In this document: positions 7,242 to 23,589 of the stretch, piece by piece | How the letters are laid out: each line of letters begins with the position of its first letter | Position numbering within the stretch: the stretch's first letter is position 1 | Virus record (IMG/VR): IMGVR_UViG_3300006164_001599 | Span: 1 to 29,241 of that record | Strand: one strand, 5' to 3' | Length of the DNA stretch: 29,241 nucleotides | DNA from: a virus | Lineage: Duplodnaviria; Caudoviricetes | The notes under the pieces: model-generated | What the model was told of the DNA's origin: nothing | The model's database searches: none | The model's input: only the letters and a program-made list of their open reading frames with translations | Translations under genes and position numbers: made by a program

Positions 7242-7250
7242 TAAGACATG
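7234..7250 (+). promoter_or_regulatory. Putative extended -10 promoter, 5 nt before ATG (leaderless)
   Basis: TGG-TATAAT(7237-7242)-AAGAC-ATG(7248). No Shine-Dalgarno sequence. Confidence 0.65.
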
Positions 7251-7688: not shown

Positions 7689-7689
7689 T

Positions 7690-8475
7690 ATGACTAAGAT
7701 TGATCTAGCCGCACTACGCGCAAAACATGAACAACTAATCGCTGCCCAAGGTGGCGGCAACACCAACAAGGACTTCCTTGAAAACTTTCTAACTGTAAAC
7801 ACTAACGAAGAAACCGTAGTACGAGTACTTCCTAGTATTGATGAAGAAGTATCAAGCTTCTTTGCTGAAACAGCTATTCACCGTATTCCTAAGGATTATA
7901 ATAATAAAAAAGGGGGAGTAACTAACTATCACTGTGCAAGACTTAAAGGCGATGCCTGTCCTATCTGTGATGTTTATTATGATCTTTGGAAAACAGGTGT
8001 GAAAACTGATGAAGATCTAGCACGTAAAGTTAAGCCCGGAAAACGTTATTATCTTAACGTTTATGATCGTGCTAACAAAGGTGTAAAGATTTTCTCTACG
8101 GGAATTAAGGTATTTGATAAGATTATCTCATCAATCCTTAACACTGAAGATTACGGTGACTTCCTTGATACTGTTGAGGGACATGATTTCAAAATCGTTA
8201 AAACTCAGCAAGGAACAGACTGGCCTGATTACTCACAATCAATGGCTCGTCCTAAAGCAACTAAACTAGGCACTTCAAAAGAGATCTCTGAAATCATGGA
8301 CAACCTTCATGATATTCATGGTCTTATTAAAGTTAAGCCTTATGATGAACTTAAGAAGGTAGGAATGGAAATTCGTATGCATTCTACTTTAGAGGTACAA
8401 CCCTCTGAACACAAAAATTCTGAACCAGAAGAAGAAGCTTCTGATGAGGATTTCGCTAACAGACTTAAAGGATAA
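7690..8475 (+). CDS. gp32-like single-stranded DNA-binding protein
   Basis: VVRVLP, zinc ligands H...C...CPIC, KRYYLNV, GHDFKIVK, WPDYSQS, acidic tail EPEEEASDED. Start placed at ATG 7690, just after the upstream stop. Confidence 0.88.
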   Translation: MTKIDLAALRAKHEQLIAAQGGGNTNKDFLENFLTVNTNEETVVRVLPSIDEEVSSFFAETAIHRIPKDYNNKKGGVTNYHCARLKGDACPICDVYYDLWKTGVKTDEDLARKVKPGKRYYLNVYDRANKGVKIFSTGIKVFDKIISSILNTEDYGDFLDTVEGHDFKIVKTQQGTDWPDYSQSMARPKATKLGTSKEISEIMDNLHDIHGLIKVKPYDELKKVGMEIRMHSTLEVQPSEHKNSEPEEEASDEDFANRLKG

Positions 8476-9056
8476 TGAATAAATTAACAACAATATTACT
8501 CCTAGTAATCATCCCGTTACTAGGATCGTGTGCAATGATGCAATCTCTCTTTATGGGAGAAGAAGGAACTGAGGCTATGATGGTAACATCACTGTCTAAT
8601 GTAAGGCCTGAAATGGTGCAAGAAGCTGGAGTTATCCCTGAGGGCGTAATTCCAGAAGAAGCTATTAAGGTTTTTGGGGATAGTATTTTTGTACTAACTC
8701 CTGAGAGTTCTTTGATTGATCCTTCTTTAGGATTTGTACTTATTCCCGGTGAAGAAGGCTTTACTAAAGAGGGGATTTGGGACAGTATTATGACTGTGGG
8801 TAAAGTAGCTATTCCAGGCTTTGCGGCTTGGGAAGGTGTACTAGCCCTATTCTCTCCTCGTAAGAGGAAGCATTATGGTACTGTAAAGAAGGCTGTTCTT
8901 CCTTGGAACTCAACTACGGTTGCTGAAGGAATTAAAGCTCTTGGTAAGGCTATAGGTACTATGCACTCAAGCACTGAGAGTGAAAAGGCAGCAAATGACT
9001 CTACTCTTGTAGTTTCTGAAGAAATGCCCAAAAAGACTGAACCAATTAACGGTTAA
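8475..9056 (+). CDS. Putative lipoprotein of unknown function
   Basis: Signal peptide MNKLTTILLLVIIPLLGS-C (lipobox). An internal hydrophobic stretch VAIPGFAAWEGVLALFS is followed by basic PRKRKHY. Confidence 0.72.
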   Translation: MNKLTTILLLVIIPLLGSCAMMQSLFMGEEGTEAMMVTSLSNVRPEMVQEAGVIPEGVIPEEAIKVFGDSIFVLTPESSLIDPSLGFVLIPGEEGFTKEGIWDSIMTVGKVAIPGFAAWEGVLALFSPRKRKHYGTVKKAVLPWNSTTVAEGIKALGKAIGTMHSSTESEKAANDSTLVVSEEMPKKTEPING

Positions 9057-9059
9057 TAT

Positions 9060-9100
9060 AAATCCCTTTGGTATAATAAGATATACCAAAGGGATTTTTT
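9060..9100 (+). terminator. Perfect 16-bp hairpin with T-tract (intrinsic terminator-like) containing a promoter motif
   Basis: AAATCCCTTTGGTATA(9060-9075) / loop ATAAGA / TATACCAAAGGGATTT(9082-9097). The T-run reaches 9100, immediately before ATG 9101. Confidence 0.8.
9069..9082 (+). promoter_or_regulatory. Putative extended -10 promoter inside the hairpin
   Basis: TGG-TATAAT(9072-9077)-AAGAT. The 12-mer GTATAATAAGAT is identical to the one before recA (24979-24990). Confidence 0.65.
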
Positions 9101-10324
9101 ATGCAAACAAATAAGTGGAAGAATAGAGTAGGATTTTTTGAAAACAAACGTAAATTAAATATTCTAGCTATCAAGGCTAATGATGGAGGCTGCGCTCAGT
9201 ACAGACTCATTCAACCACTAAGTAAACTAGCTGAGTTATATCCTGATGTAGTAGAAGTTAAAATTGTAACTAACCCGTTAGATATTGACCTAAAGACAGG
9301 AACTAAAATTCCTGACTTTGATTACGCAGACTTCAAATGGGCTGATGTTGTTATGACCAATAATATTTCAAACTTCGGTGGCCCGTTTACTGCTAGATTA
9401 TGTGGGGTAGCCAAAGAATATGGTTGCCTTTTTCACTTTGATACGGACGATCTTTTGACTGAATTATACTCCGGTCATAGATTAGAGAAGGTTTACGAAG
9501 AGAAGAAACTATCAGAGATTACAGCGTGGATCTATAGCAAATCAGATCTAGTAACTGTAACTCAAAGAAAGTTTGCAAAGAATATACAAGAACATGTGGG
9601 AAGAGTATTAGCGGTAGTTAAAAATTCTATTGACTATAACTTACCTTGCTGGAATAACGATAAAATAATCAAGCCCAAAAAGAATATTACTAGGATCGGA
9701 TGGGTTGGAGGAATTCACCATACCGAAGACCTAAAAGAGTTTTCTGCTGTACCTGCAATGGTAAATCAGAGAGCAGGAAGAGAGAATGCACAATGGGGAT
9801 TCTATGGAAGACCAGGAATGCCTAAGGATGGGGTAAAAGACTGGCAACAAGACACTTGGGATGATTATCAAAACTTACTCCTAAGTGGTTTTAAAGGAGC
9901 TAGAAACTGGAATATTTATCAAGCGTTACCTATTGATATGTACGGTGGAATGTACGCTAATATTGATGTAAGTATTGCCCCTCTCCAGAACAATAAATTT
10001 AACAATTCAAAATCTGATATTAAAGTATCTGAGTGTGGTCGATATGGTGTACCCCTTGTAGCATCTAACGTAGGCTGTTATGACGAGACTATTATCAACG
10101 GGCAGACAGGATACCTGATTGAGCCTGATGCTCCCCGTACAGAGTGGGTGAAAGTGCTTTCTTCACTTGTAAAGAACCCTCAAAAGGTGGCTCGCATGGG
10201 AGCTAACCTCAAGCAGATTACAGACGAACAATTTGACCTAAATAAAGTAGTTTATAAGAGATTGGATCTCTATGAACAAGTATTTAATCAGCTTAAAGAC
10301 GCAACCGATATCGTAGTAAAATGA
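9101..10324 (+). CDS. GT-B fold glycosyltransferase (GT4-like, phage type)
   Basis: GGCAQYRLIQP, FDTDDLL, RIGWVGGIHH, IAPLQNNKFNNSKSDIKVSEC, GVPLVASNVGCY, NGQTGYLI. Confidence 0.88.
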   Translation: MQTNKWKNRVGFFENKRKLNILAIKANDGGCAQYRLIQPLSKLAELYPDVVEVKIVTNPLDIDLKTGTKIPDFDYADFKWADVVMTNNISNFGGPFTARLCGVAKEYGCLFHFDTDDLLTELYSGHRLEKVYEEKKLSEITAWIYSKSDLVTVTQRKFAKNIQEHVGRVLAVVKNSIDYNLPCWNNDKIIKPKKNITRIGWVGGIHHTEDLKEFSAVPAMVNQRAGRENAQWGFYGRPGMPKDGVKDWQQDTWDDYQNLLLSGFKGARNWNIYQALPIDMYGGMYANIDVSIAPLQNNKFNNSKSDIKVSECGRYGVPLVASNVGCYDETIINGQTGYLIEPDAPRTEWVKVLSSLVKNPQKVARMGANLKQITDEQFDLNKVVYKRLDLYEQVFNQLKDATDIVVK

Positions 10325-10965
10325 ACAACGTAACAGTCATAATCAAGACCATTGGAAGACCTACTGTAAAAAATGCTGCTAGATCCTCTATTAGAGAAGG
10401 GTTTAAAACTATTGTAGTATGCGATGGGAGGGAAAACTTTAACTCATATGTTGATTATATGAAGGAGGAGGTTAGTTCTTCCGTAGAAACTATTATCTTA
10501 CCTCACCAATGGGGCGGTTATGGTTTCATGGCAGGTAATGTGGGAGTAGCAATGGCTGATGCTGAGTACGTTGCATTTTTAGATGATGATGATGAGTTTA
10601 TTGAAGGTGCTGGTAATATACTTAGAAAACAATTAGAAAATATTAATGGCCCTGATATTCTTATTCCTGGTATTAGATTCAAAGACCCTATAACTCTTAA
10701 TATTAACGGAGTACAAAGGGTTTCTAATGATTTATGTATGGACGGTACATTAGGAGTAGTTTTAGGTAATGTAGCAATGGCTATTTATAGAAAAGAGTTA
10801 TTTAAACACCGTCCATTCAAAACCGAACCTAATCCTGATTACTCTGACTTTACACATGTATATGATTGCTGGAAAGACGGAGCTTCAGTAACTTGGTTAG
10901 GAGAAGTATTATATCTGGTAAGACCAGAATCAAACGGAAGTAATGGAAGAGGAAAAAATGAATAA
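10321..10965 (+). CDS. GT-A fold glycosyltransferase (GT2-like)
   Basis: VTVIIKTIGRP, IVVCDG, NVGV, YVAFLDDDDE, YSDF. Confidence 0.82.
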   Translation: MNNVTVIIKTIGRPTVKNAARSSIREGFKTIVVCDGRENFNSYVDYMKEEVSSSVETIILPHQWGGYGFMAGNVGVAMADAEYVAFLDDDDEFIEGAGNILRKQLENINGPDILIPGIRFKDPITLNINGVQRVSNDLCMDGTLGVVLGNVAMAIYRKELFKHRPFKTEPNPDYSDFTHVYDCWKDGASVTWLGEVLYLVRPESNGSNGRGKNE

Positions 10966-11668
10966 TAGTAAAATAGCTATAGTACTCCCTACTAGAAATA
11001 GACCTGACCTCTTAGATAGATTTATTTCCTCGGTATATAATACAGTCTCTAATGAGGAAGTTATTAAGTTTTATCTCTATGTAGATGAAGATGATTGCCT
11101 AACACCCACCATAATACCTACTCTAAACGAAAGGTATAAAGATAAGATCTTTGTATACACTGGTCCAAGAATAATCCTATCCGCAACTGTAAACATGCTA
11201 ATACCTTTTATTAAAGAGGATATCATATTTTGTGGTGGAGACGATCTTATTTTTAGAACTGATAATTGGGACCAAATGGTTATCTCTAAGTTTGATGAGA
11301 GTGAAGATAAAATAGTTTTAGCCTATGGGGATGATTTAAATCAAAAAGAGTTAGCTACCCACCCCATACTCCATAGACGATGGATAGAGGCTTTAGGGTA
11401 TATTACACCTCCTTACTTCTCCTCTGATTACTCTGATACTTGGCTAACCGAACTAGCGGACAAGCTAGGAAGAAAGTATAAATTGGATTTTGTAAACGAA
11501 CACATGCATTTTACTATAGGAAAATCTCCTATAGATATAACGTATTTAGAAAATAGAAATAGGTTTAGCAAGGATAAACCTTATGAAATATACCAAAACC
11601 TACTACCAAGACGAGAAGAGGATTTGGAAAAGTTAGAAAAACTAAAAGGAACTATATATGAAAAATAA
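10958..11668 (+). CDS. GT-A fold glycosyltransferase (GT2-like)
   Basis: IAIVLPTRNRP, YVDEDD, GGDDLIF, HPILHRRW, YSDTW, EHMH. Start placed at ATG 10958 after a GAGGA SD. Confidence 0.82.
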   Translation: MNNSKIAIVLPTRNRPDLLDRFISSVYNTVSNEEVIKFYLYVDEDDCLTPTIIPTLNERYKDKIFVYTGPRIILSATVNMLIPFIKEDIIFCGGDDLIFRTDNWDQMVISKFDESEDKIVLAYGDDLNQKELATHPILHRRWIEALGYITPPYFSSDYSDTWLTELADKLGRKYKLDFVNEHMHFTIGKSPIDITYLENRNRFSKDKPYEIYQNLLPRREEDLEKLEKLKGTIYEK

Positions 11669-12077
11669 CACAGATAGAAAGTACTTACCAACATTATCCG
11701 AATTAATTGATAGACTATCCATCGCCCAACTTAAAGAGGTATTCATCACTGAGCATAAGGATGAATATTCACAAGAGATCCAAGATATCTTACATGATAT
11801 ACAGCTAGTAATAGATAACGAGTCTGCTAAAATTACTTCAGAGGTTATTAGGGCTATAGTTGTATTATCACAAATGAATTTACATATTTGGCACAACGAA
11901 TCAAACTATAGAAAGGGTATCGGTGAAGGAAATGACTTAGAGTTAACTCATGGACTAAACGGTATTAGAAATACAGCTAAGAATAAGGTTCAAGAGATTG
12001 TTGGTGGAAGAAAGGACTACAAGATTGATTGCCTTGCTGCTGATTTTAAAGATTGGGAGATTAGTTGGAATGGGTAA
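11658..12077 (+). CDS. Conserved helical hypothetical protein (DUF4254/DUF6165-like)
   Basis: SELIDRLSI.QLKE...NLHIWHNE...NGIRNTAKNKV pattern resembling helical proteins of bacterial glycan loci. The family label is tentative. Confidence 0.5.
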   Translation: MKNNTDRKYLPTLSELIDRLSIAQLKEVFITEHKDEYSQEIQDILHDIQLVIDNESAKITSEVIRAIVVLSQMNLHIWHNESNYRKGIGEGNDLELTHGLNGIRNTAKNKVQEIVGGRKDYKIDCLAADFKDWEISWNG

Positions 12078-12369
12078 GGAAAAGACATTTACAGACTATT
12101 ACCAATATTATTTAACATTACATCAGAATAAGGTAAATAGGTGGCTTCATGTTGTAGGGCAAGCAACTACATTAACGGTACTATGGTATATCATCACAAT
12201 ACAAACGTGGATACTGTTGCCGATTGTGCCTTTTGTTATTTATCCTTTCGCATGGATTGGACACCTGTACTTTGAAAAAAATACTCCCGCAGCTTGGTCG
12301 CATCCTCTTTGGGCTAAAGCTTGTGACTGGGTGATGCTAAAAGATATACTAACGGGCAAGCTAAAGTGA
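12070..12369 (+). CDS. DUF962/Mpo1-like membrane protein
   Basis: YYLTLHQNKVNRWLHVVG, two hydrophobic helices, FAWIGHLYFEKNTPAAW. Start placed at ATG 12070. Confidence 0.85.
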   Translation: MGKEKTFTDYYQYYLTLHQNKVNRWLHVVGQATTLTVLWYIITIQTWILLPIVPFVIYPFAWIGHLYFEKNTPAAWSHPLWAKACDWVMLKDILTGKLK

Positions 12370-12426
12370 GTGTGTTAGTTATATATAATAATATTCCATA
12401 AGGGTTTTATTAAAATAAATAGAAAT

Positions 12427-13083
12427 ATGAAAGAACTTAGTATATTAATCAGCACAAATAGACCATACGAACTTTTTGCAAAAAGAGTTATAGATTCATT
12501 GTTTGAGCAAGATATGACTAATAATGAAATCGTTATTTGCCATACTCCTGACATTGTAATAGAGGATGATAGGGTTGTACTTATAGAGGATAAAATTTGT
12601 ATAAATGGTCCCCAAGGGTATAATCAAGCCGCACAAGAGTGTACTGGAGAATATATTGTTGGACTGACAGATGATGAATACCCACCACTTAATATAAACT
12701 CTATTAAATCTTCATTTAATAACGAGTATTTCAAAGATAAGGAATATAAGGTCGCTACCTTAGCAACAGGTCCATACCCCGCTTACACAGAAGGTCCAAG
12801 GACTCTTATGTGTAGATTCTTTGTTCTAACTAGAGACACTTTAGAAAAATTAAATTATTATGTTTTTCATCCGTCATTTAACTTGAAAACGCCCCATCAT
12901 GCTGATCATTGGTTAAGTATATTCTTGCATCTTAATGGTTGTCCTTGTGTAGAATTGCCATTACATATAAGGCATTGGGAATCAGTGCCATCCGGATACA
13001 AAGTAGATGATTTTGCTGTTGAAACGGGGGAAATTTTAAGAACCCTAGTTACTAACTATAAGATTGGAGATACATTTGTATGA
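12427..13083 (+). CDS. Divergent GT-A (GT2-like) glycosyltransferase
   Basis: LSILISTNRP, EIVIC, GYNQAAQECTGEYIVGLTDDE, HADHWLS. Confidence 0.72.
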   Translation: MKELSILISTNRPYELFAKRVIDSLFEQDMTNNEIVICHTPDIVIEDDRVVLIEDKICINGPQGYNQAAQECTGEYIVGLTDDEYPPLNINSIKSSFNNEYFKDKEYKVATLATGPYPAYTEGPRTLMCRFFVLTRDTLEKLNYYVFHPSFNLKTPHHADHWLSIFLHLNGCPCVELPLHIRHWESVPSGYKVDDFAVETGEILRTLVTNYKIGDTFV

Positions 13084-13820
13084 AAATTTTAGTTATAGGT
13101 GAGACATGCACCGATATTTTTTGCTATGGAACATGCGATAGACTGGAACCATCGGCTCCTGTGCCAGTATTTAAAGAACTTTCTAAGCGTACCTCTAAAG
13201 GCATGGCTCAACTTGTAGCGAATAATATCTCGTCTTTGGGTACTACATGTGATGTAATATCTAACAATAATGAAGACGATATAACAAAAGTAAGGTACGT
13301 TGATAATAGGTCTAATCATATGTTTCTCCGAGTGGATACTAATGATGATAAGTTTACTTCATGTGACTTGAGTAGTATAGAAGGCACTGATTTCTCCCAG
13401 TATGCGGCGGTAGTAATCTCCGATTATAATAAAGGATTTCTGTCCAAAGAGGCTATTGAGTATATTTTAAGTAGGCATTCTATAACATTTCTGGATACAA
13501 AGAAAGTTCTTGGGCCTTGGTCTACTAAGGCTAAGTTTATTAAAATCAACTCTGAAGAGTTTAGAAAGAGTAAAGATTATATAGACGATTCTTATGATGA
13601 TAAAATTATTATAACTTTAGGTAGTATAGGATCTAGTTACAAAGGGATAAACTACTCCGTTGAGAACGTTAGTGTTAAGGATGTTTCTGGAGCAGGAGAT
13701 ACTTTTTTAGCTGCTCTAGTAACTAACTATTTGAAAACTTTCGATATTGTTTCTGCTATTAAGTTTGCTAATGACTGCTCTACTAGAGTTGTACAAGGAA
13801 GAGGAATGACTATACTATGA
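13080..13820 (+). CDS. Stand-alone HldE/RfaE domain I-like PfkB sugar-phosphate kinase (heptose-7-phosphate kinase-like)
   Basis: ILVIGE..D.F.YG..DRL.P.APVPV, ISDYNKGFL, IKINSEE, ITLG..G, DVSGAGDTFLA. Confidence 0.88.
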   Translation: MKILVIGETCTDIFCYGTCDRLEPSAPVPVFKELSKRTSKGMAQLVANNISSLGTTCDVISNNNEDDITKVRYVDNRSNHMFLRVDTNDDKFTSCDLSSIEGTDFSQYAAVVISDYNKGFLSKEAIEYILSRHSITFLDTKKVLGPWSTKAKFIKINSEEFRKSKDYIDDSYDDKIIITLGSIGSSYKGINYSVENVSVKDVSGAGDTFLAALVTNYLKTFDIVSAIKFANDCSTRVVQGRGMTIL

Positions 13821-13939
13821 AAAATAACTTATTAATTATCTTCCCTAACTCTGCGTTACTCTACCAAGACCTAAAAGATAATTTTTCACCCAAAGAGCCT
13901 AATATTTTGGCGGGTATGTTAGAGAATAGAGTATTATAG
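13817..13939 (+). pseudogene. Truncated 5' relic (40 aa) of a second cobalamin-binding radical SAM gene
   Basis: ATGA-coupled ORF MKNNLLIIFPNSALLYQDLKDNFSPKEPNILAGMLENRVL*. It aligns by eye to the N-terminus of the next gene (VLFVEPNSAKQSYQGLADTYAAIETPTWALLL). Confidence 0.7.
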
Positions 13940-13980
13940 TAGGATGGATCAGGCGTGTAAAGTAAAGGAATCACAGTATT

Positions 13981-15510
13981 ATGAAACAAAACAATAAGAT
14001 AGATGTGCTGTTTGTTGAGCCTAATTCTGCAAAGCAATCGTACCAAGGGCTTGCAGATACCTATGCTGCTATAGAAACCCCAACTTGGGCTTTACTCCTA
14101 GCCCAAAGCTGTAGAAGTAAAGGATTTTCTGTGAGCCTCTTGGATGCCAATGCGGAACGACTAACAGACGATGAGGCTCTGGATAGAATTAATGAACTAG
14201 CCCCGAGAATGGTTTGCTTTGTTGTATACGGACAGAATCCAAATTCAGGCACAGTCAATATGACAGGAGCTTACGCTCTTTCTGACAAATGCCATAGGGA
14301 AGGTCACATCACTGTTTTTGTCGGATCCCATAGTTCAGCCCTGCCAAAAGAAGTCGTGTCTAATAGTTGTGTTGATATTGTTCTATTAAATGAGGGGGTA
14401 TATGCTTTGCATAATCTACTCAAATCTAATTTAAAGAGTGATTTGCATAATATAAAGGGAATTGGATTTAAGAACGAAGACTCTTCTATAGTAATAAACG
14501 ACCCAGAAAGAATTGTGCCTCAAAATAGAATGGTTGAGGATTTACCGGGATATGCATGGGACCTCTTACCTTACAATAAGACTCCATTTGATTTATATAG
14601 AGCCCATTTTTGGCATACCAACTATAGCCTAGAAGATAGAAGCCCCTTCGCCGCTATTTATACTTCATTCGGATGTAACTTTAAATGCGATTTTTGTATG
14701 ATTAATATCCTAAACAGAACTAGCAACGAGGACTCCGCTGTATCTTCAGACTTTAATATTATGAGGTATTGGCCCGCCGATTTTATCATAAAAGAGTTTG
14801 ATACCTTGTATAATCAGTATGGAGTAAAAAATATTAGAATAAGCGACGAGATGTTTTTTTTACATAAGAAGCATTACCTTCCTATAATAGAACTCCTGGA
14901 GGACAGAAAGTATCCCCTTAACATGTGGGCTTATAGCAGGGTCGATACTTGCAAACCAGATATGCTTACTAGGTTTAAAGGTGTTGGTATTAATTGGCTT
15001 GGACTAGGTATAGAGTCTGCTAATAAAACTGTTAGGCAGGAGATCACAAAAGGAAAATTTAAGGATGTTCACATTAAATCTGTAGTAAAAGAAATAAAAA
15101 AGGCTGGAATTAATGTTGGAGCAAATTATATATTTGGATTTCCCGGTGAGAATTTAGAAAACTTGCAAGAAACATTAGATCTTGCAAAAGACATTAATGC
15201 TGAGTTTACTAATATGTACTGCGCTGCTGCCTTACCCGGAAGTCCCTTATACAGAGAGGCTGTAGAGAATGGATGGGATCTCCCAGACAGTACTAGTGGG
15301 TACGGGTTTTATTCTTATGACTGCAAACCTTTACCAACTAGGCACTTAACTGCCGAGCAAGTTCTACGGTTTAGAGACGAGGCTTGGCAAGAGGTAGTTT
15401 TAGACGAAAGCTATCTATCACTAATAGAGTCCAAATTTGGGCATCAAGCTAGATTGAACATAGTAAGCCAATCTAGACTTAAACTAAAAAGAAAATTACT
15501 AGGAGACTAA
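13981..15510 (+). CDS. Cobalamin-binding radical SAM enzyme (class B, methyltransferase-like)
   Basis: N-terminal B12-binding domain (LLDANAE, VGSHSSALP, EG), TSFGCNFKCDFC (CxxxCxxC), ISDEMF, LGIESAN, NYIFGFPGE, ALPGSPLY. Confidence 0.92.
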   Translation: MKQNNKIDVLFVEPNSAKQSYQGLADTYAAIETPTWALLLAQSCRSKGFSVSLLDANAERLTDDEALDRINELAPRMVCFVVYGQNPNSGTVNMTGAYALSDKCHREGHITVFVGSHSSALPKEVVSNSCVDIVLLNEGVYALHNLLKSNLKSDLHNIKGIGFKNEDSSIVINDPERIVPQNRMVEDLPGYAWDLLPYNKTPFDLYRAHFWHTNYSLEDRSPFAAIYTSFGCNFKCDFCMINILNRTSNEDSAVSSDFNIMRYWPADFIIKEFDTLYNQYGVKNIRISDEMFFLHKKHYLPIIELLEDRKYPLNMWAYSRVDTCKPDMLTRFKGVGINWLGLGIESANKTVRQEITKGKFKDVHIKSVVKEIKKAGINVGANYIFGFPGENLENLQETLDLAKDINAEFTNMYCAAALPGSPLYREAVENGWDLPDSTSGYGFYSYDCKPLPTRHLTAEQVLRFRDEAWQEVVLDESYLSLIESKFGHQARLNIVSQSRLKLKRKLLGD

Positions 15511-15514
15511 AAAA

Positions 15515-16036
15515 ATGAAAAAAGCACTTATTATTACATGGGACGGGTTCCAAGATCAGGAAGTAATCTATCCTTACTACAGGCTTCAAGAAGCTGGGTT
15601 CCAGGTTACAATCTCTGGGGCTACGGGAAAAGAAGAAGTCATCGGCCTATTTGGGACGAAGTTCAAATGCATTGGGGATAATATGATTTTATCCCCAGAA
15701 AACTATGACTTATTAGTTCTGCCCGGAGGAGTTAAAGCTTTAGAAAAAGTAAGACAGTCTGTTCCAGTGCTAAACTTTATCAAAGCATGGTCTAAGGACA
15801 AGGTGATATCATCAATATGTCACGGAGCGCAGCTTCTTATTTCCTGTGGGAAAGTAAAAGATGAAGAAGTCTCCGGTTATTATAGTATTAAAGATGATAT
15901 AATCAATGCTGGAGGAAGCTACAATCCAAATCCTGTAATATCATCCAACATTGTTTCTGGCGCACATTACAAAGATATGCCTGAATGGATGGAAAAAACT
16001 TTACAGACTTATGACATTTACAATGAAAGACTATAA
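15515..16036 (+). CDS. DJ-1/PfpI family protein (Cys hydrolase/glyoxalase-like)
   Basis: GFQDQEVIYPYYRLQEAG, YDLLVLPGG, nucleophile elbow SICHGAQLL. AGGAG SD upstream. Confidence 0.9.
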   Translation: MKKALIITWDGFQDQEVIYPYYRLQEAGFQVTISGATGKEEVIGLFGTKFKCIGDNMILSPENYDLLVLPGGVKALEKVRQSVPVLNFIKAWSKDKVISSICHGAQLLISCGKVKDEEVSGYYSIKDDIINAGGSYNPNPVISSNIVSGAHYKDMPEWMEKTLQTYDIYNERL

Positions 16037-16643
16037 AAGCGTAGTAATCCCAAAACCTTGGGGTAAAGAGTATCTATTATTTGAAGAAAGTAATGTAGCA
16101 GGATGGGTACTTCATATAAATCGTGGAGAGAAGACCTCTTTACATTGCCACCCAAAAAAGAAGACAAGTTTAATTGTATTAAATGGGGAGGCAAAGATTA
16201 GCTTTCTCACATCTTCTATAGAAGTAAGTCGGGGGAATAAAACTATAATTCGTCAAGGGGTATTTCATTCCACAGAGGCACTATCAGATTTATGCCTACT
16301 TGAAATAGAAACTCCTGTTGATAAAGGAGATCTTATTAGATTGAAAGATTTATATGGAAGAGAGGGTACACCTTATGAAACAACTGAGTATCCCCGAGGA
16401 GATCTTGATTACCTTGAGACTGGTAAGCTTACTGAGACTGAGATTAGTGGAGCCAAACTGTGTTTCAAAGAAGATAATGACATGTCTAAATTTGATTTAG
16501 TTGTATTCTTAGAGCCCGGACTTGTTAATGAGGTAGCAGTAATAGCTGGAGAAGGAGACTGCCTTACTAAGGCTGGGTACAACCTGCTCTCTTCAGAATT
16601 CTCTTCCACGCACAATGCAAAGAGATTAGAGATCAATGTATAG
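16023..16643 (+). CDS. Cupin protein (type II phosphomannose isomerase/sugar isomerase-like)
   Basis: PKPWGKEY, TSLHCHPKKKT, GVFHST, LEIETP, DLIRLKDLYGR. Start placed at ATG 16023. Confidence 0.8.
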   Translation: MKDYKSVVIPKPWGKEYLLFEESNVAGWVLHINRGEKTSLHCHPKKKTSLIVLNGEAKISFLTSSIEVSRGNKTIIRQGVFHSTEALSDLCLLEIETPVDKGDLIRLKDLYGREGTPYETTEYPRGDLDYLETGKLTETEISGAKLCFKEDNDMSKFDLVVFLEPGLVNEVAVIAGEGDCLTKAGYNLLSSEFSSTHNAKRLEINV

Positions 16644-17118
16644 CCTCTGGTTAGATCTGGATAAGACCATATGGAACTGCTACAATGAAGTAGGAGTAGA
16701 AATCTGGGCTAAAGACTTGAAAGGACCTTTTACAGTATCCAAAGATTCTCCTGATAAAATTGTTGCTAGTAATGGTAAGTGTGAATTACAATCTGGGCTT
16801 AGAAAGTTTTTTCTAAAAGCTAAGGATGAAACTCATTCAATCAATACCATCAGTGCTGGGGCAGATTTTATCAATAGATTTGAAGATCAACCTTCTTACC
16901 TACTCTTAATGCTTCTAGGGCTACTAAAGTACCAAGATAATATAGTGTTACAAACAAGAGAGTTTAATAAAGGTAGGTTTTTATCAAAACTAAATAACAA
17001 GAACATAGTGTTTATAGATGATGATCCTATTCAGATAAGAAATTCTAATGATTACAATATATTTTCTATAAACAGGGGGAGTTTTACTTTATGGAATACC
17101 TTAGTAATTGCTCAATGA
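16636..17118 (+). CDS. HAD-superfamily phosphatase (MDP-1-like)
   Basis: Motif I DLDKTIW, motif II S, conserved K, motif IV VFIDDD. Confidence 0.75.
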   Translation: MYSLWLDLDKTIWNCYNEVGVEIWAKDLKGPFTVSKDSPDKIVASNGKCELQSGLRKFFLKAKDETHSINTISAGADFINRFEDQPSYLLLMLLGLLKYQDNIVLQTREFNKGRFLSKLNNKNIVFIDDDPIQIRNSNDYNIFSINRGSFTLWNTLVIAQ

Positions 17119-17906
17119 AAAAGATAAAAGAGAGAGTTTTATACAAAGCATGTTTTTGTAGGGAGTTTGAATTATCAGTTCAAAGGTCTATAATTGAGGG
17201 AGTGATAACATGCCCAGTATACTTATCTATTGGGCAGGAACTTCTTCCCGCTGTTCTTTCCGAGTTTTTCCCTGACTCTTATATTTTCGCTCAACATAGA
17301 GCCCACTCAACCTATTTATGTTTTGGTGGAGATCCTAAAGAGCTAATCACTATGCTAAAAGGTTCTAAACAAGGATCTGCTTCTATAAATATCCCCAATA
17401 AGATGCTAGGGCATAGTGGTTTTATGGGGGACCAAGTTCCTCTATCCGTAGGGTTTACTTTAAGCAATACTATTAAAGGTAAAAATTCTCACACATTATC
17501 TATTATGGGAGACGCTTCCGCAGAGGAGGATTATGTACTAGCATCTTTAGGATTTGCATCAAGCAAGAAGCTTCCAATGTTGTTTGTGGTTGAGGATAAC
17601 AATCTCTCTATCCTTACAGAGAAAAAAGTTAGACGATCTTGGGAAATGTCTGAAGTAGCTAAATCTTTTGGAATCAAGGCATCTTTTGATGTTTGTGATA
17701 GTTTAGATTCTTTACTCTCCGTGGTATCGGAAATAAACCCAAAGGAGACTAGTTTTCTAAATATTAGATCTGAAAGAATCTGCTGGCACGCAGGAAGCGG
17801 AACTAACGAAGGCGTTTATGATCGTCTAAAAGATGAATCCAAAGAGTTCCCAGGTATAATCGAAAGAGCCAAACTAGATAATAAAAAAATATGGGACACA
17901 GTTTAG
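17115..17906 (+). CDS. TPP-dependent dehydrogenase E1 alpha-like subunit
   Basis: PVYLSIGQE, QHRAH, TPP-binding MGDASAEE...VVEDNN, RICWHAG. Start placed at ATG 17115 (ATGA overlap). Confidence 0.88.
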   Translation: MKKIKERVLYKACFCREFELSVQRSIIEGVITCPVYLSIGQELLPAVLSEFFPDSYIFAQHRAHSTYLCFGGDPKELITMLKGSKQGSASINIPNKMLGHSGFMGDQVPLSVGFTLSNTIKGKNSHTLSIMGDASAEEDYVLASLGFASSKKLPMLFVVEDNNLSILTEKKVRRSWEMSEVAKSFGIKASFDVCDSLDSLLSVVSEINPKETSFLNIRSERICWHAGSGTNEGVYDRLKDESKEFPGIIERAKLDNKKIWDTV

Positions 17907-18802
17907 CAAAAACTATAAGTAGGCTTACCTTGGAACATATGCAGAAGGGCAATTTATTGCTAGGGCAATGTCTAAGCGCAGTTGGTTGGGTTGGTGGTAC
18001 TATACCTGAAGTTCCTGATCACCCCAACCTTGTGGAACTGTCAATGTCAGATGTAGCTGGGGGAGGTATCGCTACAGGAGCCGCCTTATTTGGGAGTAAA
18101 CCTATATATGTTGTTAGGTATCAAGGATTCTTATGGTATAACTTGATTTCCGTAGTTAACTACGCTGCTAAAAGCAAGGAGATATGGGGGGTTCCTTGCC
18201 CCATTATAGTTAGAGCTATTTCTATGGAAGGGGGTATAGGTCCAGTAGCTGGGTCCTCACATATCTCTTTAGCTTACAAAATGCCCGGAGTTTCTATATC
18301 ATGCCCTAGGACTCCTAAAGAATATGAGGAAGTGTGGGCTCATGCTGTATTAGGGGACGATCCTTACATTATATCAGAACATAGATCTAGCTTTCTAACT
18401 GAGAAAGAGGAAAATTATAAAGTTTTTGACGATCCAGATGTAGTTTTGTTGCCAATCTCTGTACCTAGAGGAGAAATTAATAAAGCTATAGCTACTATTG
18501 GAAGCAAGCTTAAAGTAAGCGTTAACCCAATAGTATACCTTAAGCCTTTTCTACACTTTGATACCGTTGTAGAGGTAATAAAGAAATCAAAATTTGGAGC
18601 AATTGTTATAGATGATGACTACACTAACGGTATAGCCAAGTCTGTAGCTTACGACTTAATGGTAGAGTCCGGAAAACCTGTCAAGGTCATGGGACTTAAG
18701 GATAGGTCAGCAGGGTTCTCTAAAGATACGGATAACCTGCCCCCAAGTGAGGGGGAGATACTAAAAGAAATAGAGGAAGTAACCTTATGCAAGATTTATT
18801 AA
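17891..18802 (+). CDS. TPP-dependent dehydrogenase E1 beta/transketolase C-like subunit
   Basis: ATGAALFGSKPI, VNYAAK, CPIIVR, GPVAGSSH, DDPYIISEHR. Directly follows the alpha subunit. Confidence 0.85.
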   Translation: MGHSLAKTISRLTLEHMQKGNLLLGQCLSAVGWVGGTIPEVPDHPNLVELSMSDVAGGGIATGAALFGSKPIYVVRYQGFLWYNLISVVNYAAKSKEIWGVPCPIIVRAISMEGGIGPVAGSSHISLAYKMPGVSISCPRTPKEYEEVWAHAVLGDDPYIISEHRSSFLTEKEENYKVFDDPDVVLLPISVPRGEINKAIATIGSKLKVSVNPIVYLKPFLHFDTVVEVIKKSKFGAIVIDDDYTNGIAKSVAYDLMVESGKPVKVMGLKDRSAGFSKDTDNLPPSEGEILKEIEEVTLCKIY

Positions 18803-19701
18803 TAGTTTTCAATACCTATGGAACTAAAGACAACCATACACATTACGAAAGATGTATACAATCTATTCTAGATTGTGATCTCCCAGAGGGCACTAAAATT
18901 GCCGTATCTTCTTGTAACAATTCTAAGATATGCAGAGAGTATCTAAAGTTCATTTTCAAGGACAAAATTATTATTTCTGAGATAAATATTGCTTTGCCTG
19001 TTAATATAACTTTCAACTTAACTGTCAAGAGATGTGTAAAAATGTTCGGTGAGTTTAAGAATTATTTGTATGTAGACTCTGGTGTGGATTTCTTATCGAA
19101 TGAGGGGGCTATTAAAGAGGCTGTTGAGGCTATGAACTCTAACAAGTACGCTATGCTAAGTTTTCAAATTTGCAATGATAACGCATTGTATAATGTAGGA
19201 ATACATAACCCTCCACTACTAGGACAAAACCATGAAGTTCCTGTAGGCACAGCGTGTAATGGACATGCTGAGATGTTTTCTAATGATATTTTCAAGAGGT
19301 TTAATGGGTTGCTAATGCCCGATGTATTTGCAGCGTGTTGTACCGAGTCTACATTCTCTTTTGTATCAGCATCTGTTGGTAAGAGATGGGTTATACTAAA
19401 AGACTACTTACTTAATCATGCTAAAGGTGTTGATGGTGCATCATCCTGTGTACCTCATGTATCCCCTGTACACCACAATACATGGAACAACTTATTATTT
19501 GGCCGTAATGCAGAGGAATTTATTAATGACACTGAAGCTTTAGTAGCCGGGCTTGGATACGAGGAGTGTAATTCTATAATGATCCATGACAATAATGCTT
19601 ATACTGTAGACGGACTTCCTAAAAATAAGGAGAGGTTATCTTTAGTAGTAGAAAAGTACTTCTATTCTACCAAAGAGGAGCTTAATTATGAAAATTTATA
19701 A
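18787..19701 (+). CDS. Hypothetical protein, probable divergent GT-A glycosyltransferase
   Basis: LLIVFNTY start, CIQSIL, TFNLTVK, YLYVDSGVDF at the usual DxD position, and island context. Confidence 0.5.
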   Translation: MQDLLIVFNTYGTKDNHTHYERCIQSILDCDLPEGTKIAVSSCNNSKICREYLKFIFKDKIIISEINIALPVNITFNLTVKRCVKMFGEFKNYLYVDSGVDFLSNEGAIKEAVEAMNSNKYAMLSFQICNDNALYNVGIHNPPLLGQNHEVPVGTACNGHAEMFSNDIFKRFNGLLMPDVFAACCTESTFSFVSASVGKRWVILKDYLLNHAKGVDGASSCVPHVSPVHHNTWNNLLFGRNAEEFINDTEALVAGLGYEECNSIMIHDNNAYTVDGLPKNKERLSLVVEKYFYSTKEELNYENL

Positions 19702-20614
19702 GTATCCAACAGCTATCCCTCATGTTCACGATTCTGATGTAGATTATTACAACGTAATACCTTTCTCTGAGAAAGGTTTAAAGGAGGAGTGTACGTTAGT
19801 TAGTAATCCCGAGGACGCAGATTACTACTATATGGGGCAATGGTCACACGATTATAAACTTTTCAATATAAATGATTTTAAGTATTTTTCTTCCTGTCCG
19901 GAGAAGCATATTATAGATTTAGAGGGTGACGGAGGATTTGATATACCTTCCTTTTTATGGAATTCTATTATAACTGTGAATGGACCTCTTAAGGAGTACG
20001 ACTCCAAAATAAGGAATCTTTTTGTTAGACCCACATTTTCCAAGTTATTTGTAAACATATGTAAAAATAGATTTGAAGATTTGAAATACTGCCTAGACAG
20101 GTCCTTTGGGTTTAGAGGTTATATAAATTGTAATACTAGGTACAATATGTTTAACAACTTGATACAAAAAAACAATGGTACTGTAAAAGTTGACCTTATT
20201 TCTAACAACCATTGGAACGGCCCTTCTTTAGTTGGGTCTAAGATACAAGAAGAGTACTTAGAGGATTTAAAAAAATATGCTTTTTCCTTATGCCCAAGAG
20301 GGTCCGGAACAGATAGTGTACGTCTCCTTGAATCCTGTTACTATGGAAGAGTACCTGTGCTAATATCAGACGTAGATTACTTACTAGTAGACCATAAGTA
20401 CTCAGACTCCTCTTTTATTAGAAGAATTATTTGGGACGGAAAAACTGATTTAGCCCCAATCCTAAAAGAGCTTACTAATATTGAGGATTGCATAATTAAG
20501 GAAGACCAAACAAAGGCAAGGTACTATTTTGATAATACCCTTAGGAAGTATATGGACAACCCAACTAAGTATATGCTAAACTGGATGGAAAAGCAAGGAT
20601 TAGTAAATGAATAA
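19688..20614 (+). CDS. Exostosin-like (GT47) glycosyltransferase
   Basis: NPEDADYYY, FGFRG, FSLCPRGSGTDSVRLLESCYYGRVPVLISD. Confidence 0.82.
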   Translation: MKIYKYPTAIPHVHDSDVDYYNVIPFSEKGLKEECTLVSNPEDADYYYMGQWSHDYKLFNINDFKYFSSCPEKHIIDLEGDGGFDIPSFLWNSIITVNGPLKEYDSKIRNLFVRPTFSKLFVNICKNRFEDLKYCLDRSFGFRGYINCNTRYNMFNNLIQKNNGTVKVDLISNNHWNGPSLVGSKIQEEYLEDLKKYAFSLCPRGSGTDSVRLLESCYYGRVPVLISDVDYLLVDHKYSDSSFIRRIIWDGKTDLAPILKELTNIEDCIIKEDQTKARYYFDNTLRKYMDNPTKYMLNWMEKQGLVNE

Positions 20615-21119
20615 ATTTCCCAATACGATAGAAGTAACAACCCTTCCTAAGTATGAGGATAATAGAGGATTCCTTTCTACTCTCGGAAAAGATGTACCCG
20701 GAAGTTTCAAAGAAGATAGGTACTCAGTATCTACTAAAAATGTTCTTCGTGGACTGCACGGGGACGCAGTTACCAATAAGCTAATTGTTGTTCTCCAGGG
20801 AACAGTTGAATTTTTTGCGACTCCATATTTTAAGGAAAATCCTAATTTTGGAGAAAAGACTTTCCTTACTCTGTCTGGAAAAACGCCCCAAGCTATCTAT
20901 CTACCGAAAGGTTACTTAAACGGACATTTATGTCTTTCTGAAGAATGTGTGTTCTTTTACAAGTGGTCACACTATTATAATGGAGCAGACGCACAAGTTA
21001 GTGTTAGGTACGATGATGAAGATCTAAATATACCTTGGTCTATAGACAACCCTATACTCTCTACTAGAGATAATAAGTATGGGACTACATTTAATGAGCT
21101 AGTTAGCTTTGCCGAATAA
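20607..21119 (+). CDS. rmlC: NDP-4-keto-6-deoxyhexose 3,5-epimerase (RmlC family)
   Basis: YEDNRGF, KNVLRGLH, YLPKGYLNGH, FFYK, YDDEDLNIPW, ILSTRD. Confidence 0.9.
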   Translation: MNKFPNTIEVTTLPKYEDNRGFLSTLGKDVPGSFKEDRYSVSTKNVLRGLHGDAVTNKLIVVLQGTVEFFATPYFKENPNFGEKTFLTLSGKTPQAIYLPKGYLNGHLCLSEECVFFYKWSHYYNGADAQVSVRYDDEDLNIPWSIDNPILSTRDNKYGTTFNELVSFAE

Positions 21120-21120
21120 T

Positions 21121-22302
21121 ATGAGTAAGTTTATTTTACCCCTTATGGAGGATAATATTGACAAGGGGGATATTCAAGAGGTCATTGATTTTCTTAGTCA
21201 GGAAGAGATTCCTAAGTTAACTAATGGACCTAAGGTAGTTGAGTTTGAAGAGAAGTGGTCAGAGTGGGTAGGAGTAAAGCATAGCTTATTTGTAAACTCT
21301 GGATCTGCTGCCAATGAGCTTACTATGTTAGCTTTAGCTTACCTAGAAGGAGAGGGTGAAATAATACTCCCTCCTCTAACTTGGATTTCCGATATAGCAT
21401 CTGTGAAGTTCGCTGGGTTTACCCCAGTATTCTGCGATATCAACCTAAATAATCTTAGTTTTGATATTGATCAACTGAAGACCAAGATTACACCTAAAAC
21501 TAAAGCTATATTTTTAACGCATGTATTAGGGTTTAATGGTATTAGTGACGAGCTATTAGAGCTATGTGATGATAATAATATTATTCTTATTGAAGATGTT
21601 TGTGAGTCTCATGGTGCTACCTTCAAAGGAAAGAAAGCTGGATCCCTTGGCTTTGCCTCTAACTTTAGTTTCTACTACGCACATCATATGACAACTATCG
21701 AGGGCGGCATGATTTGTACTGATGATAACAAGTTCTATCAAGTTTGCAGGGCATTAAGATCTCACGGTATGGTACGGGAAATGACAGACAAGAGATTACA
21801 AGACTCTATATTTAAAGAAAATCCAGAGGTCAACAGTGATTTCTTATTTTTAGCACCCTCCCATAACTTTAGAAGTACTGAGATTAATGCAGTCATTGGA
21901 TTGTCCCAAATAAAGAAACTTGATGCTAATGTTTCTAAAAGAGCGGATAACTTTGAGTACTTTATGAGTAACTTAGACTCAACTCACTACATGACCTCCT
22001 TCGACATGGAAGGACAAAGTAACTATGCCTTCGTAGTTGTCTTAAAAGATGCTAATATGCACAAAAGGGACTTGTTAGAGAGTCTTCTGACAGAGAAGCG
22101 CATTGAGTTCCGTAGAGGCTTGTCAGGCGGGGGAAATCAACTAAAACAGCCCTTTTTTAAAGACACTTACAACGATTCTGATTTCGTAGTTGTGAATTAC
22201 ATTCATGACTATTCTTGGTATATTGGTAACTACCCATCCTTAGAAAGAGACACTTTAGATTTTCTTCTAACCACACTAAACACTGCTTTTGAAGCACAAT
22301 AA
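21121..22302 (+). CDS. DegT/DnrJ/EryC1/StrS-fold PLP enzyme, His-type: ColD-like NDP-4-keto-6-deoxyhexose 3-dehydratase
   Basis: FVNSGSAAN, LTHVLG, IEDVCESHGA, FSFYYAHHMTTIEGGM (His at the catalytic Lys position), RSHG, YIGN. Start placed at ATG 21121. Confidence 0.85.
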   Translation: MSKFILPLMEDNIDKGDIQEVIDFLSQEEIPKLTNGPKVVEFEEKWSEWVGVKHSLFVNSGSAANELTMLALAYLEGEGEIILPPLTWISDIASVKFAGFTPVFCDINLNNLSFDIDQLKTKITPKTKAIFLTHVLGFNGISDELLELCDDNNIILIEDVCESHGATFKGKKAGSLGFASNFSFYYAHHMTTIEGGMICTDDNKFYQVCRALRSHGMVREMTDKRLQDSIFKENPEVNSDFLFLAPSHNFRSTEINAVIGLSQIKKLDANVSKRADNFEYFMSNLDSTHYMTSFDMEGQSNYAFVVVLKDANMHKRDLLESLLTEKRIEFRRGLSGGGNQLKQPFFKDTYNDSDFVVVNYIHDYSWYIGNYPSLERDTLDFLLTTLNTAFEAQ

Positions 22303-22303
22303 T

Positions 22304-23245
22304 ATGAGAAACATTTTAATTACAGGAGGAGCAGGATACCTCGGCTCCGTTTTTGTTAAGAATATCATGGCCCAAGAGTGGGCTAAAGTTACGGTAGTAG
22401 ACATTCTTAAGTTTGGACAAACTCCATTAACAGAATACTGTTGTAGGGATAACTTCAACTTCATTCTAGGGGATGTTACTAATCAAGAACTAATGCTTCC
22501 TCTTATTCAGGAGGCAGATGTTATTGTACCCTTCGCTGCTATAGTAGGATTTCCTGCTTGTGATGCAGATAGAGATGGGGCTACCAAGATTAATTACGAG
22601 CATGTCAAATTTATCTGTGATAACAAAAGAGAAGATACGAAAGTAATTTACCCTAACTCCAATAGTGGTTATGGGGTTGGAGAGAAAGATGTTTTCTGCA
22701 CAGAGGAAACTCCTCTAAACCCTATTAGCCATTATGGGGTTACTAAGTGTTTAGCTGAGAAAGAAGTAATCCGAGCAGGAGGAGTAGTGTTTAGATTAGC
22801 TACAGTTTTTGGAGTGTCTCCTCGTATGAGAATTGATCTCCTAGTAAATGATTTTACTTACAAGGCTTATAACGATGGTTATATCGTACTGTTTGAGCAT
22901 GAGTTCAAGAGGAATTATATTCATGTCCAAGATGTAACTAATGCATTCCTTCATGGTATCGAGAACTATGAGTTAATGGGAGGAGAGCTTTATAATGTTG
23001 GGTTGTCTAATGCTAACTTAAATAAGAAGCAACTCTGCGAGGTTATAAAAACATTAGTTCCTAACTTTTCAATAAACTTTGATGATATCAATACTGATCC
23101 TGATAAAAGGGATTATATAGTTTCTAACGAAAAATTAGAGGCTACGGGTTGGTCCCCTAAGGTTTCTCTTGTAGATGGGGTTAGAGAGCTACTAAAAGCT
23201 TATCCTATTCTTGAAAAGCAGTTAAAAACATACACTAACGTATAA
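22304..23245 (+). CDS. NAD-dependent sugar epimerase/dehydratase/reductase (extended SDR)
   Basis: ITGGAGYLG, AAIVGFPAC, YGVTK (YxxxK), RLATVFGVSPRMRIDLLVN, RNYIHVQD. Start placed at ATG 22304. Confidence 0.9.
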   Translation: MRNILITGGAGYLGSVFVKNIMAQEWAKVTVVDILKFGQTPLTEYCCRDNFNFILGDVTNQELMLPLIQEADVIVPFAAIVGFPACDADRDGATKINYEHVKFICDNKREDTKVIYPNSNSGYGVGEKDVFCTEETPLNPISHYGVTKCLAEKEVIRAGGVVFRLATVFGVSPRMRIDLLVNDFTYKAYNDGYIVLFEHEFKRNYIHVQDVTNAFLHGIENYELMGGELYNVGLSNANLNKKQLCEVIKTLVPNFSINFDDINTDPDKRDYIVSNEKLEATGWSPKVSLVDGVRELLKAYPILEKQLKTYTNV

Positions 23246-23589
23246 TGGAAAATTTAAGTTTAAGTGAGTATCAAAACCAAGCTATGAGAACAGCTATTTA
23301 CCCCTTACCTGATGGTGATGGGTTCCCTGTCTATCCTATTTTAGGTTTAGTGGGTGAAGCTGGAGAAGTAGCTGAAAAGGTAAAGAAGTTAATTCGTGAT
23401 AAAGATGGAAACGCAGACAAAGACGATTTATTTGAAATCGCTAAAGAGCTTGGTGATGTACTTTGGTATGTAGCTGCTATAGCTAGACACACAGGATACG
23501 CCTTAGAAGATATAGCCAAAATGAATTTAAAAAAACTAGCCTCTCGACAAGAAAGAGGTAAGTTAGGTGGGAGTGGGGATAATCGCTAA
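23245..23589 (+). CDS. mazG: MazG-like nucleoside triphosphate pyrophosphohydrolase
   Basis: LGLVGEAGEVAEKVKK, KELGDVLWY, NLKKLASRQERGKLGGSGDNR. Confidence 0.9.
   Translation: MENLSLSEYQNQAMRTAIYPLPDGDGFPVYPILGLVGEAGEVAEKVKKLIRDKDGNADKDDLFEIAKELGDVLWYVAAIARHTGYALEDIAKMNLKKLASRQERGKLGGSGDNR

Follow-up and report, generated by a model that had tools for sequence, protein, structure and literature searches.

The DNA analysed here is a 29,241-nt stretch from a tailed virus (IMG/VR record IMGVR_UViG_3300006164_001599, positions 1 to 29,241; "the window" below means this whole stretch), and our subject is its 14-kb island of sugar-synthesis and glycosyltransferase (GT) genes lying among replication and recombination genes (Table 1). 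A preliminary description, made from the sequence letters, had read the island as 18 intact, co-oriented and mostly overlapping genes, and this was borne out: 14 of the 17 junctions between open reading frames (ORFs) overlap, with gaps at 12369-12427 and 13820-13981 and one of 4 nt at 15510-15515. Its count of about six GTs was also correct, and scans with Pfam, NCBIfam and PHROG upheld the labels of kinase, B12-binding radical S-adenosylmethionine (SAM) enzyme, DJ-1, cupin, HAD, thiamine pyrophosphate (TPP)-dependent E1α/β, RmlC and short-chain dehydrogenase/reductase (SDR). The proposed His-type pyridoxal phosphate (PLP) dehydratase proved to be a DegT-family protein with a histidine at the ColD position. 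Sixteen of the 18 genes had been labelled; the two left over are a 139-aa helical ORF (ORF139) and an Mpo1-like ORF. In the window, gp32, a UvsY-like ORF (7248) and, between gp32 and the island, a lipoprotein lie on the left side, and MazG, an RNase T-type exonuclease and RecA/UvsX on the right. Of the flanking labels, gp32, MazG, the exonuclease (called Orn before) and RecA/UvsX stood, and "UvsY" has no Pfam match and owes its name to position. As had been noted, no wzx, wzy, ABC exporter, initiating phosphoglycosyltransferase or ligase was matched among the 18 genes in the three scans, and the island thus lacks the flippase/polymerase, exporter and priming enzyme that mark a Wzx/Wzy or ABC O-antigen or capsule locus. 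Structure searches and a comparison of synteny, both proposed in that description, agreed with the gene labels and found the same architecture in relatives.

Table 1. Features of the island and its borders (positions in the window).
Feature	Position	Strand	Basis or remark
Lipoprotein, left anchor	8475-9056	+	Lipobox Cys, C-terminal hydrophobic helix, RKRK; outside the cassette; 69/81 loci
Cis element	9057-9100	+	-10-like [CG]TAT[AT]AT[AG] at 9071 within a 14-bp inverted repeat, then T-run, ATG without Shine-Dalgarno sequence
Island	9101-23245	+	18 intact ORFs, all co-oriented
GT-B, GT4 fold, conserved anchor	9101-10324	+	Predicted initiating or core transferase
GT2, semi-conserved second transferase	10321-10965	+	In 32/81 loci
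GT2 / phrog_14945	10943-11668	+	Profile scans
ORF139, four-helix 139-aa protein	11658-12077	+	Shared by unrelated phage sugar modules at 80-86% identity
Mpo1-like (2-hydroxy acid dioxygenase family), small, hydrophobic	12070-12369 (likely)	+	Pfam E 1e-27
Divergent GT2	12427-13083	+	Pfam E 0.003; missing from related alleles
HldE-domain-I-type (PfkB) heptose-7-phosphate kinase-like, short, 246 aa	13080-13820	+	TIGR02198 E 1e-30 (below cutoff); PDB 4E84
B12-binding radical SAM enzyme	13981-15510	+	HpnJ best, far below cutoff; AprD4 E 4e-9
DJ-1, PMI-type cupin, MDP-1-type HAD block	15515-17118	+	Profile scans
TPP-dependent E1α/β pair	17091-18802	+	Profile scans
GT2-like GT-A, virus-dominated clade	18787-19701	+	No profile match; Atlas features and structure
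GT47/RXYLT1-like GT	19688-20614	+	Profile scan
RmlC-type C3/C5 epimerase	20607-21119	+	Profile scan, PDB comparison
ColD-like PLP C3-dehydratase (DegT)	21109-22302	+	Best PDB matches ColD/WbdK, E 4e-55
Cj1427-like NDP-sugar C4-dehydrogenase (SDR)	22289-23245	+	PDB 6VO6, E 1.5e-106
Right anchor: promoter-like motif and MazG	23240-23589	+	Joining point of other alleles

Throughout the virus family, one fixed genome site holds a cassette of variable content, of which the island is one allele. We counted features in 81 loci, namely the window and 80 fetched from 562 confirmed viral GT-B loci; all 81 carry the GT-B, 76 gp32, 74 the UvsY-like ORF, 69 the lipoprotein and 58 a helicase. The order is gp32, lipoprotein, promoter/hairpin, GT-B, variable genes, then MazG/dUTPase/deaminase and RecA, and the gene lists 3' of the GT-B differ nearly locus by locus among the fetched loci. 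The 163 cluster representatives include GT2, GT8, GT10, GT11, GT25, GT29, GT47 and GT-D transferases, together with NeuB, a DAHP/Kdo-type synthase, cytidylyltransferases, Gmd/Fcl-type SDRs, DegT, FdtA, WbqC, and formyl-, sulfo-, pyruvyl- and methyltransferases (FkbM/TylF). The fucosyl-, sialyl-, Kdo-type, methyl, sulfo and pyruvyl functions predicted for these relatives are surface-antigen chemistry. Ten cassettes close inside the fetched DNA, with 4-18 genes in 3.5-14.1 kb, a range in which the 10-kb flank of the fetched loci favours short cassettes; the cassette of relative G006 is ~15.5 kb long and has 8 module genes in common with the window. In two seawater runs (X7 and X8), both flanks are present at ~97-98% nucleotide identity and contigs enter unlike sequence before 23238-23240, which suggests that cassettes are likely exchanged at the strain level, each contig covering only part of any alternative cassette. 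These loose ends may instead stem from a different phage with the same MazG start, and the mostly uncovered island interior in both runs was not counted as evidence. The island had been singled out as a candidate undescribed system; it is not a one-off and its enzyme kit is widespread, and what stands is that we found no published account of this virus family or its cassette in the literature searched, which lay outside subscription papers and bioRxiv supplements.

Just ahead of the GT-B, the motif given in Table 1 was found in 75 of the 81 loci and in none of 81 control windows, and alignment showed that a GC hairpin with a T-run, and then an ATG without a Shine-Dalgarno sequence, follow it in most loci. 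RecA, UvsW and a small sigma-like ORF often have the same motif ~12 nt ahead of them, and gp32 has it at a distance of 40-50 nt. We infer that a predicted terminator closing the upstream operon overlaps a putative -10-only cassette promoter of the replication-gene class. A generic sigma-70 scan stayed at chance level (51 versus 60.9). Within the window the motif occurs at 7236, 9071, 13931, 23240, 24979 and 26002, and it is also found in G001-G006, often ~12 nt before an ATG in a leaderless-type arrangement; it is frequently placed in divergent pairs, and some structural operons have a different, TAAATA/TAGATA-like motif ahead of them.

The GT-B behind this element has 762 homologues, the best 120 of which are 57-100% identical to it. 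Its AlphaFold2 model (pLDDT 91) lies nearest to the GT4 enzymes SPS, TreT, BshA and HepE (Z 27.8-30.4; VIA-align), and the matches of the modelled fold name no acceptor. On its other side, the lipoprotein, presumably u-spanin-like by its architecture, is exchanged in some loci for a holin-like ORF and two lipoproteins at the same position (e.g. L005:6200-7135), and because it can be replaced we set it aside as a glycan acceptor.

Since enzymes of this kind also exist in bacteria, the island could be an assembly chimera or a decaying captured O-antigen locus, and the right border does lie on a ~110-bp graph node common to another allele, with no single listed contig spanning it. The other evidence makes this reading scarcely credible. 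The left border is bridged by contigs of X1 (possibly the source run) and X2 and by locus L001, which repeats 5800-12394 at 99.9%; depth in X1 and X2 is similar across the island and its flanks; GC content is 33-40% throughout the window, island GC and GC3 matching the backbone; and relatives show the same order of cassette, MazG/deaminase and RecA. In the 17 genes with a relative, pN was 0.10-0.38 against a saturated pS of 0.68-1.05, and 19 of the 21 single-nucleotide polymorphisms listed for the GT-B are synonymous, so the intact cassette genes appear to be under purifying selection. Of 20 bacterial matches to the SDR, 13 loci were examined; they were at most 57% identical and carried neither ORF139, Mpo1 nor the window's GTs. 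Two of the grounds on which the preliminary description would have given up its proposal, a chimera and relaxed selection, were thus not found, and the chimera or decay reading is largely refuted. One side observation concerns the same border: base 23319 of the window differs from all three runs covering it, possibly through a mix of alleles at the MazG node.

From its enzymes, the allele is predicted to make a 3-deoxy, C4-branched sugar; yersiniose- and caryophyllose-type sugars are the names for the product class expected here. The SDR aligned over its full length with 6VO6, which we take to be C. jejuni Cj1427, the runner-up reaching an E-value of 2e-18, and the dehydratase has the ColD-type hallmark of a catalytic histidine aligned where the PLP lysine stands in others. 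According to the accessible text of PMC10680097, Cj1427 and a C3-dehydratase together yield GDP-3-deoxy-4-keto-heptose in vitro, which an epimerase can invert. Since the island holds no nucleotidyltransferase, the substrate would be a nucleoside diphosphate (NDP)-manno-sugar supplied by the host, GDP-mannose or GDP-heptose, to be oxidised at C4 by the SDR, deoxygenated at C3 by the ColD-like enzyme and epimerised by RmlC. Since it also holds no C4-reductase, the keto group at C4 would instead receive a carbon branch from the E1α/β pair. The radical SAM enzyme may further tailor the sugar, and the HldE-type kinase and the HAD protein may feed a separate ADP-heptose donor.

Gene co-occurrence fits this scheme. 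The Cj1427-like gene is found at 366 viral loci; among 123 viral loci with it, RmlC is present in 86 and a TPP enzyme, belonging to one of four types, in 91. Among 17 loci with E1α, E1β occurs in 17, DJ-1 in 16, the cupin in 16, ColD in 14 and HAD in 4; DJ-1 and the cupin travel with E1α/β. In G006 and L120 the place of E1α/β is occupied by an ALS-like TPP enzyme with best PDB matches 8RPH and 5AHK, presumably YerE-type enzymes, and this exchange of TPP enzyme types at one place supports C4 branching. Homology and co-occurrence thus support the cytoplasmic, soluble pathway to a deoxy, branched glycan that had been proposed. Hundreds of unrelated phage contigs also carry the kit, as do bacteria, where the 13 SDR loci carry a GHMP kinase (10), a B12-binding radical SAM enzyme (9), a transketolase-like enzyme (9) or DegT (6); judged by its sequences, it is bacterial in kind and not a recent copy of any sampled locus. 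Separately, a PanB-like hydroxymethyltransferase directly precedes an ALS/YerE-like TPP enzyme at L108:10674-11492 and L120:13161-14180, perhaps supplying an unusual 2-oxo-acid donor.

The methylation that had also been raised as a possibility is conjectural: the radical SAM enzyme has no close characterised relative by PDB and profile comparison, its relatives here being drawn from the fetched loci. ORF139 has homologues at 491 viral loci and its Atlas clusters are viral, with a DUF6165 match at 20%; a fold search gave no informative match (Z at most 7.2), and no counterpart was found in the annotated phage set. A MazG-like role for ORF139 was considered and was unsupported. The Mpo1-like gene is found in 23 loci and adjoins ORF139 in L120 and L121, and is a member of the module rather than a passenger. 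The divergent GT2 at 12427 is skipped by contigs in X7 and X9, which join 12374 to 13089.

What the cassette glycosylates can be narrowed by comparison. We favour the reading, with a probability of about 0.5, that virion proteins receive a variable glycan from it in the infected cell's cytoplasm. Chain synthesis would begin with the conserved GT-B acting on a conserved acceptor of the phage and continue with the five variable GTs; exchange of cassettes by recombination in the conserved flanks would then give serotype-like particle coats, affecting adsorption, decoy binding, grazing or stability. That capsule-like decorations change so quickly while the one GT ahead of them stays invariant fits an exposed glycan on a conserved, phage-encoded acceptor. 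As in known virion-glycosylation clusters, soluble NDP-sugar enzymes and GTs of lineage-specific content lie between conserved flanks, and the major capsid protein (MCP) has variable S/T/G/N-rich loops, which is mildly consistent with this reading. Several points weigh against it. The cassette sits among replication genes, and its motif is of the gp32, RecA and UvsW class, unlike the motif before some structural genes. The closest folds of the GT-B are small-molecule or lipid GT4s and not protein-initiating GTs (GtfA, Z 19.5), and the HldE-type kinase points to ADP-heptose, a donor for the lipopolysaccharide (LPS) core. Many of the 81 loci are incomplete at their ends, and some of the 80 are near-duplicates.

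Membrane proteins bear on the main rival to a virion coat, which is editing of the host LPS core. By a crude hydropathy rule, none of 175 cassette protein clusters (549 proteins) has at least two predicted transmembrane (TM) segments, against 7 of 37 in an E. coli O16/colanic acid control. The lack of a polytopic protein removes Wzx/Wzy, ABC and Gtr-type routes; it does not remove core editing by soluble GTs, and LPS-core GTs are indeed soluble. Furthermore, 8 of the 13 bacterial loci with the same SDR also have no protein with at least 4 TM segments within ~10 kb. Soluble GTs could accordingly modify host lipid A-core or lipid-linked repeat units, host transporters exporting the product, and so lock out rival phages or grazers. 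The heptose-kinase and RfaE-II genes in the module, the middle-type promoter, the bacterial enzyme kit and a lipoprotein suggestive of a diderm host all favour such a conversion, which the accessible parts of PMC5332604 and PMC12801897 propose for marine T4-like phages. We nevertheless consider it rather unlikely. The 175 clusters hold no Wzy, Wzx, Gtr or acyltransferase-type membrane gene, and nothing resembles prophage serotype conversion by gtrABC or oac; Pfam and PHROG scans of G001 and G006:C3 matched no integrase or repressor, so that in a lytic cycle the benefit of lock-out would be short-lived. Moreover, with six GTs and a conserved, phage-specific GT-B, one would expect an entire chain built on a conserved acceptor, and host flippases and polymerases may refuse it.

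DNA, an acceptor named in the preliminary description, would be hypermodified by the GT-B glycosylating a base and other GTs extending the chain, guarding against restriction. This would suit a location among replication genes, a mildly basic GT-B (pI 8.5 versus a family median of 7.6) and a fold shared with T4 alpha-GT (Z 20; VIA-align). In other lineages the module has DUF1599 and 2-oxoglutarate (2OG) oxygenases in its neighbourhood, and the same idea has been proposed for phi92-like phages in the text available of PMC7552041. The window also keeps its restriction sites, with CCGG at 21/24 and ACGT at 43/59 (observed/expected), and together with G003 it shows no purge, a further point against the virion coat. 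Most relatives, however, look different. G001 has no CCGG or CGCG (0/114 and 0/50 expected) and G006 no CCGG or ACGT (0/105 and 0/177); ACGT is missing from G004 (0/83) and G005 (0/74), and CCGG is purged from G002. In all, 4 of 6 relatives lack at least one 4-base palindrome entirely where 50-177 were expected, with CCGG nearly gone in a fifth (1/41), and 25 of 36 loci of at least 10 kb show near-absence of at least one. ACGT contains all four bases. Such purging is the look that unprotected DNA would have under restriction pressure. In the known systems, glycosylation of phage DNA depends on a handle of the ThyA or TET type (Pyle preprint; PMC13326640, both in the portions accessible). The window uses ThyX. 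A search for a base-hydroxylating enzyme, which had been suggested, gave no support: PF00303 (ThyA) was found in 0/5 relatives, whose records are incomplete, the control being found in 10/14, and the lone PF00145 (C5-methylase) match lies off the phage contig, in G006. A search for Tet_JBP (PF12851) gave 0/5 relatives with its positive control also blank. The comparative data thus weigh against DNA, and we regard it as improbable, though less so for the window and G003, which keep their sites. As a side observation, the purge combinations of CCGG, CGCG and ACGT differ across G001, G002, G004, G005 and G006 and could fingerprint host restriction systems.

The glycan might instead be placed on a target inside the cell that is not part of the virion, say a small molecule or a protein of host or phage, perhaps to disable a defence system. 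This would agree with the GT-B being nearest to small-molecule GT4s (SPS, TreT, BshA) and with all enzymes being soluble. It leaves the strain-level turnover of 3-17 genes and the capsule-like decorations unexplained, and we judge it to be another improbable option. Returning to virion glycosylation, the parts can be joined into a tentative picture of marine phage serotypes, in which the GT-B primes a capsid or tail glycan, a recombining cassette swaps coats between near-identical strains, and this allele would make an undescribed 3-deoxy, C4-branched, possibly heptose-derived sugar with ORF139 as a virus-enriched cofactor protein.

Glycosylating mycobacteriophages carry few GTs, against 3-17 variable genes including donor synthesis here. 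Their GTs act on capsid and tail proteins (Freeman et al. 2023, as cited in the accessible text of PMC12619734), and cytoplasmic phage GTs working on capsid and tail are the mechanism proposed for our cassette. In Megavirinae, the fibrils of the virion are glycosylated by gene clusters that number 6-33 genes and are bounded by conserved ones (Notaro et al. 2022, PMC10117803, in the parts available), with virus-encoded NDP-sugar enzymes and GTs, clade-specific content and rare bacterial-like sugars as further likenesses. Those are eukaryotic giant viruses with late promoters and a chemically shown virion glycan, whereas this is a tailed phage with a putative acceptor, a predicted replication-class promoter and turnover that is likely strain-level. 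The "LPS/cell-wall" clusters of cyanomyophages P-SSM2, S-SCSM1 and S-SCSM2R (PMC12801897) and of marine EVG (PMC5332604) likewise combine many GTs and sugar enzymes in marine T4-like myoviruses, and the accessible sections read them as host-surface or DNA modification. Compared with what those sections describe, the present family is set apart by its split PolA, genomes of 110-130 kb, a single fixed slot, a conserved GT-B with its cis element, and the branched-sugar module. Large sugar-gene clusters in marine phages and cyanophages are thus already published; the fixed slot with conserved GT-B, cis element and branched-sugar module is new here. With the C. jejuni capsular heptose pathway (PMC10680097, as far as accessible) and GDP-colitose ColD, the island shares the C4-dehydrogenase-like SDR, the His-type C3-dehydratase and RmlC; it differs in having no C4-reductase, GmhA, HddA, HddC or capsule export, and in having the TPP pair, B12-binding radical SAM enzyme, DJ-1, cupin and HldE-type kinase. 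Finally, phi92-like coliphages (Justusliebigvirus, Phapecoctavirus; Bas62) encode dTDP-rhamnose synthesis (PMC7552041, available text) and have, next to primase and polymerase, a 4-GT cluster with one gene distantly homologous to the anchor GT-B (24-27%, E ~1e-9). That cluster is small and the homology remote, making it a proxy only.

Sugar clusters in large marine phages are usually filed without test as "LPS auxiliary metabolic genes" or as DNA-modifying genes, and this family helps to separate the options by sequence through a slot that is fixed yet variable, missing membrane machinery and purged restriction sites in most relatives. If the virion coat model is true, phage diversity in the sea would have a hidden dimension, that of glycan serotypes, with effects on adsorption and decay. 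The cassettes would moreover offer many enzymes of rare-sugar synthesis, among them interchangeable TPP branching enzymes, the B12-binding radical SAM enzyme and ORF139. Through the remote homologue in Bas62/phi92, the question of the acceptor can be approached in E. coli K-12.

The family is a widespread one of uncultured marine T4-like myoviruses, whose genomes measure ~110-130 kb and carry a split PolA. The window's own genome is known as its 29 kb, which include ThyX, and the relatives' records are incomplete; the longer ones, G001 (98.5 kb, 87% complete) and G006:C3 (130.6 kb), carry T4-like head, tail and baseplate genes and a PolA split in three. The search for relatives gave no close cultured phage (helicase at most 31%). 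Three hosts were considered and rejected. The 130.6-kb contig (L101 / G006:C3) lies within a Prochlorococcus single-cell assembly but has no photosynthesis-gene matches; family contigs in a Planctomycetales metagenome-assembled genome (MAG) with 3 MCP matches have a GC content of 40-43% versus 56% in the two longest contigs of that MAG; and others lie in an Altibacter MAG. Because the MCP was found in 1 of 301 genomes of G007's order, all were treated as co-binned or co-sorted.

The split PolA comprises a UDG-like/3'-5' exonuclease ORF, a 160-aa ORF and a polymerase ORF (G001 29027-31996, L082:10027-12996), an arrangement present in all six records, in each of which it adjoins a conserved, divergent 116-aa sigma70-region-2 ORF. 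A second phage lineage (L225, L235, L236, L245, L273) has the same design, with DUF1599, PD-(D/E)XK, two conserved GT4s, a GT2, ORF139 and a variable sugar module. In a third (L129, L132, L171, L174, L180), the Cj1427/RmlC/TPP module is accompanied by GT7 genes, a LamG protein and radical SAM enzymes, the scanned representative having a Laminin-G domain besides GT7. Within the window, 27390-28736 encodes a family-conserved ClpB-like single-AAA ATPase with a 100-aa upstream partner.

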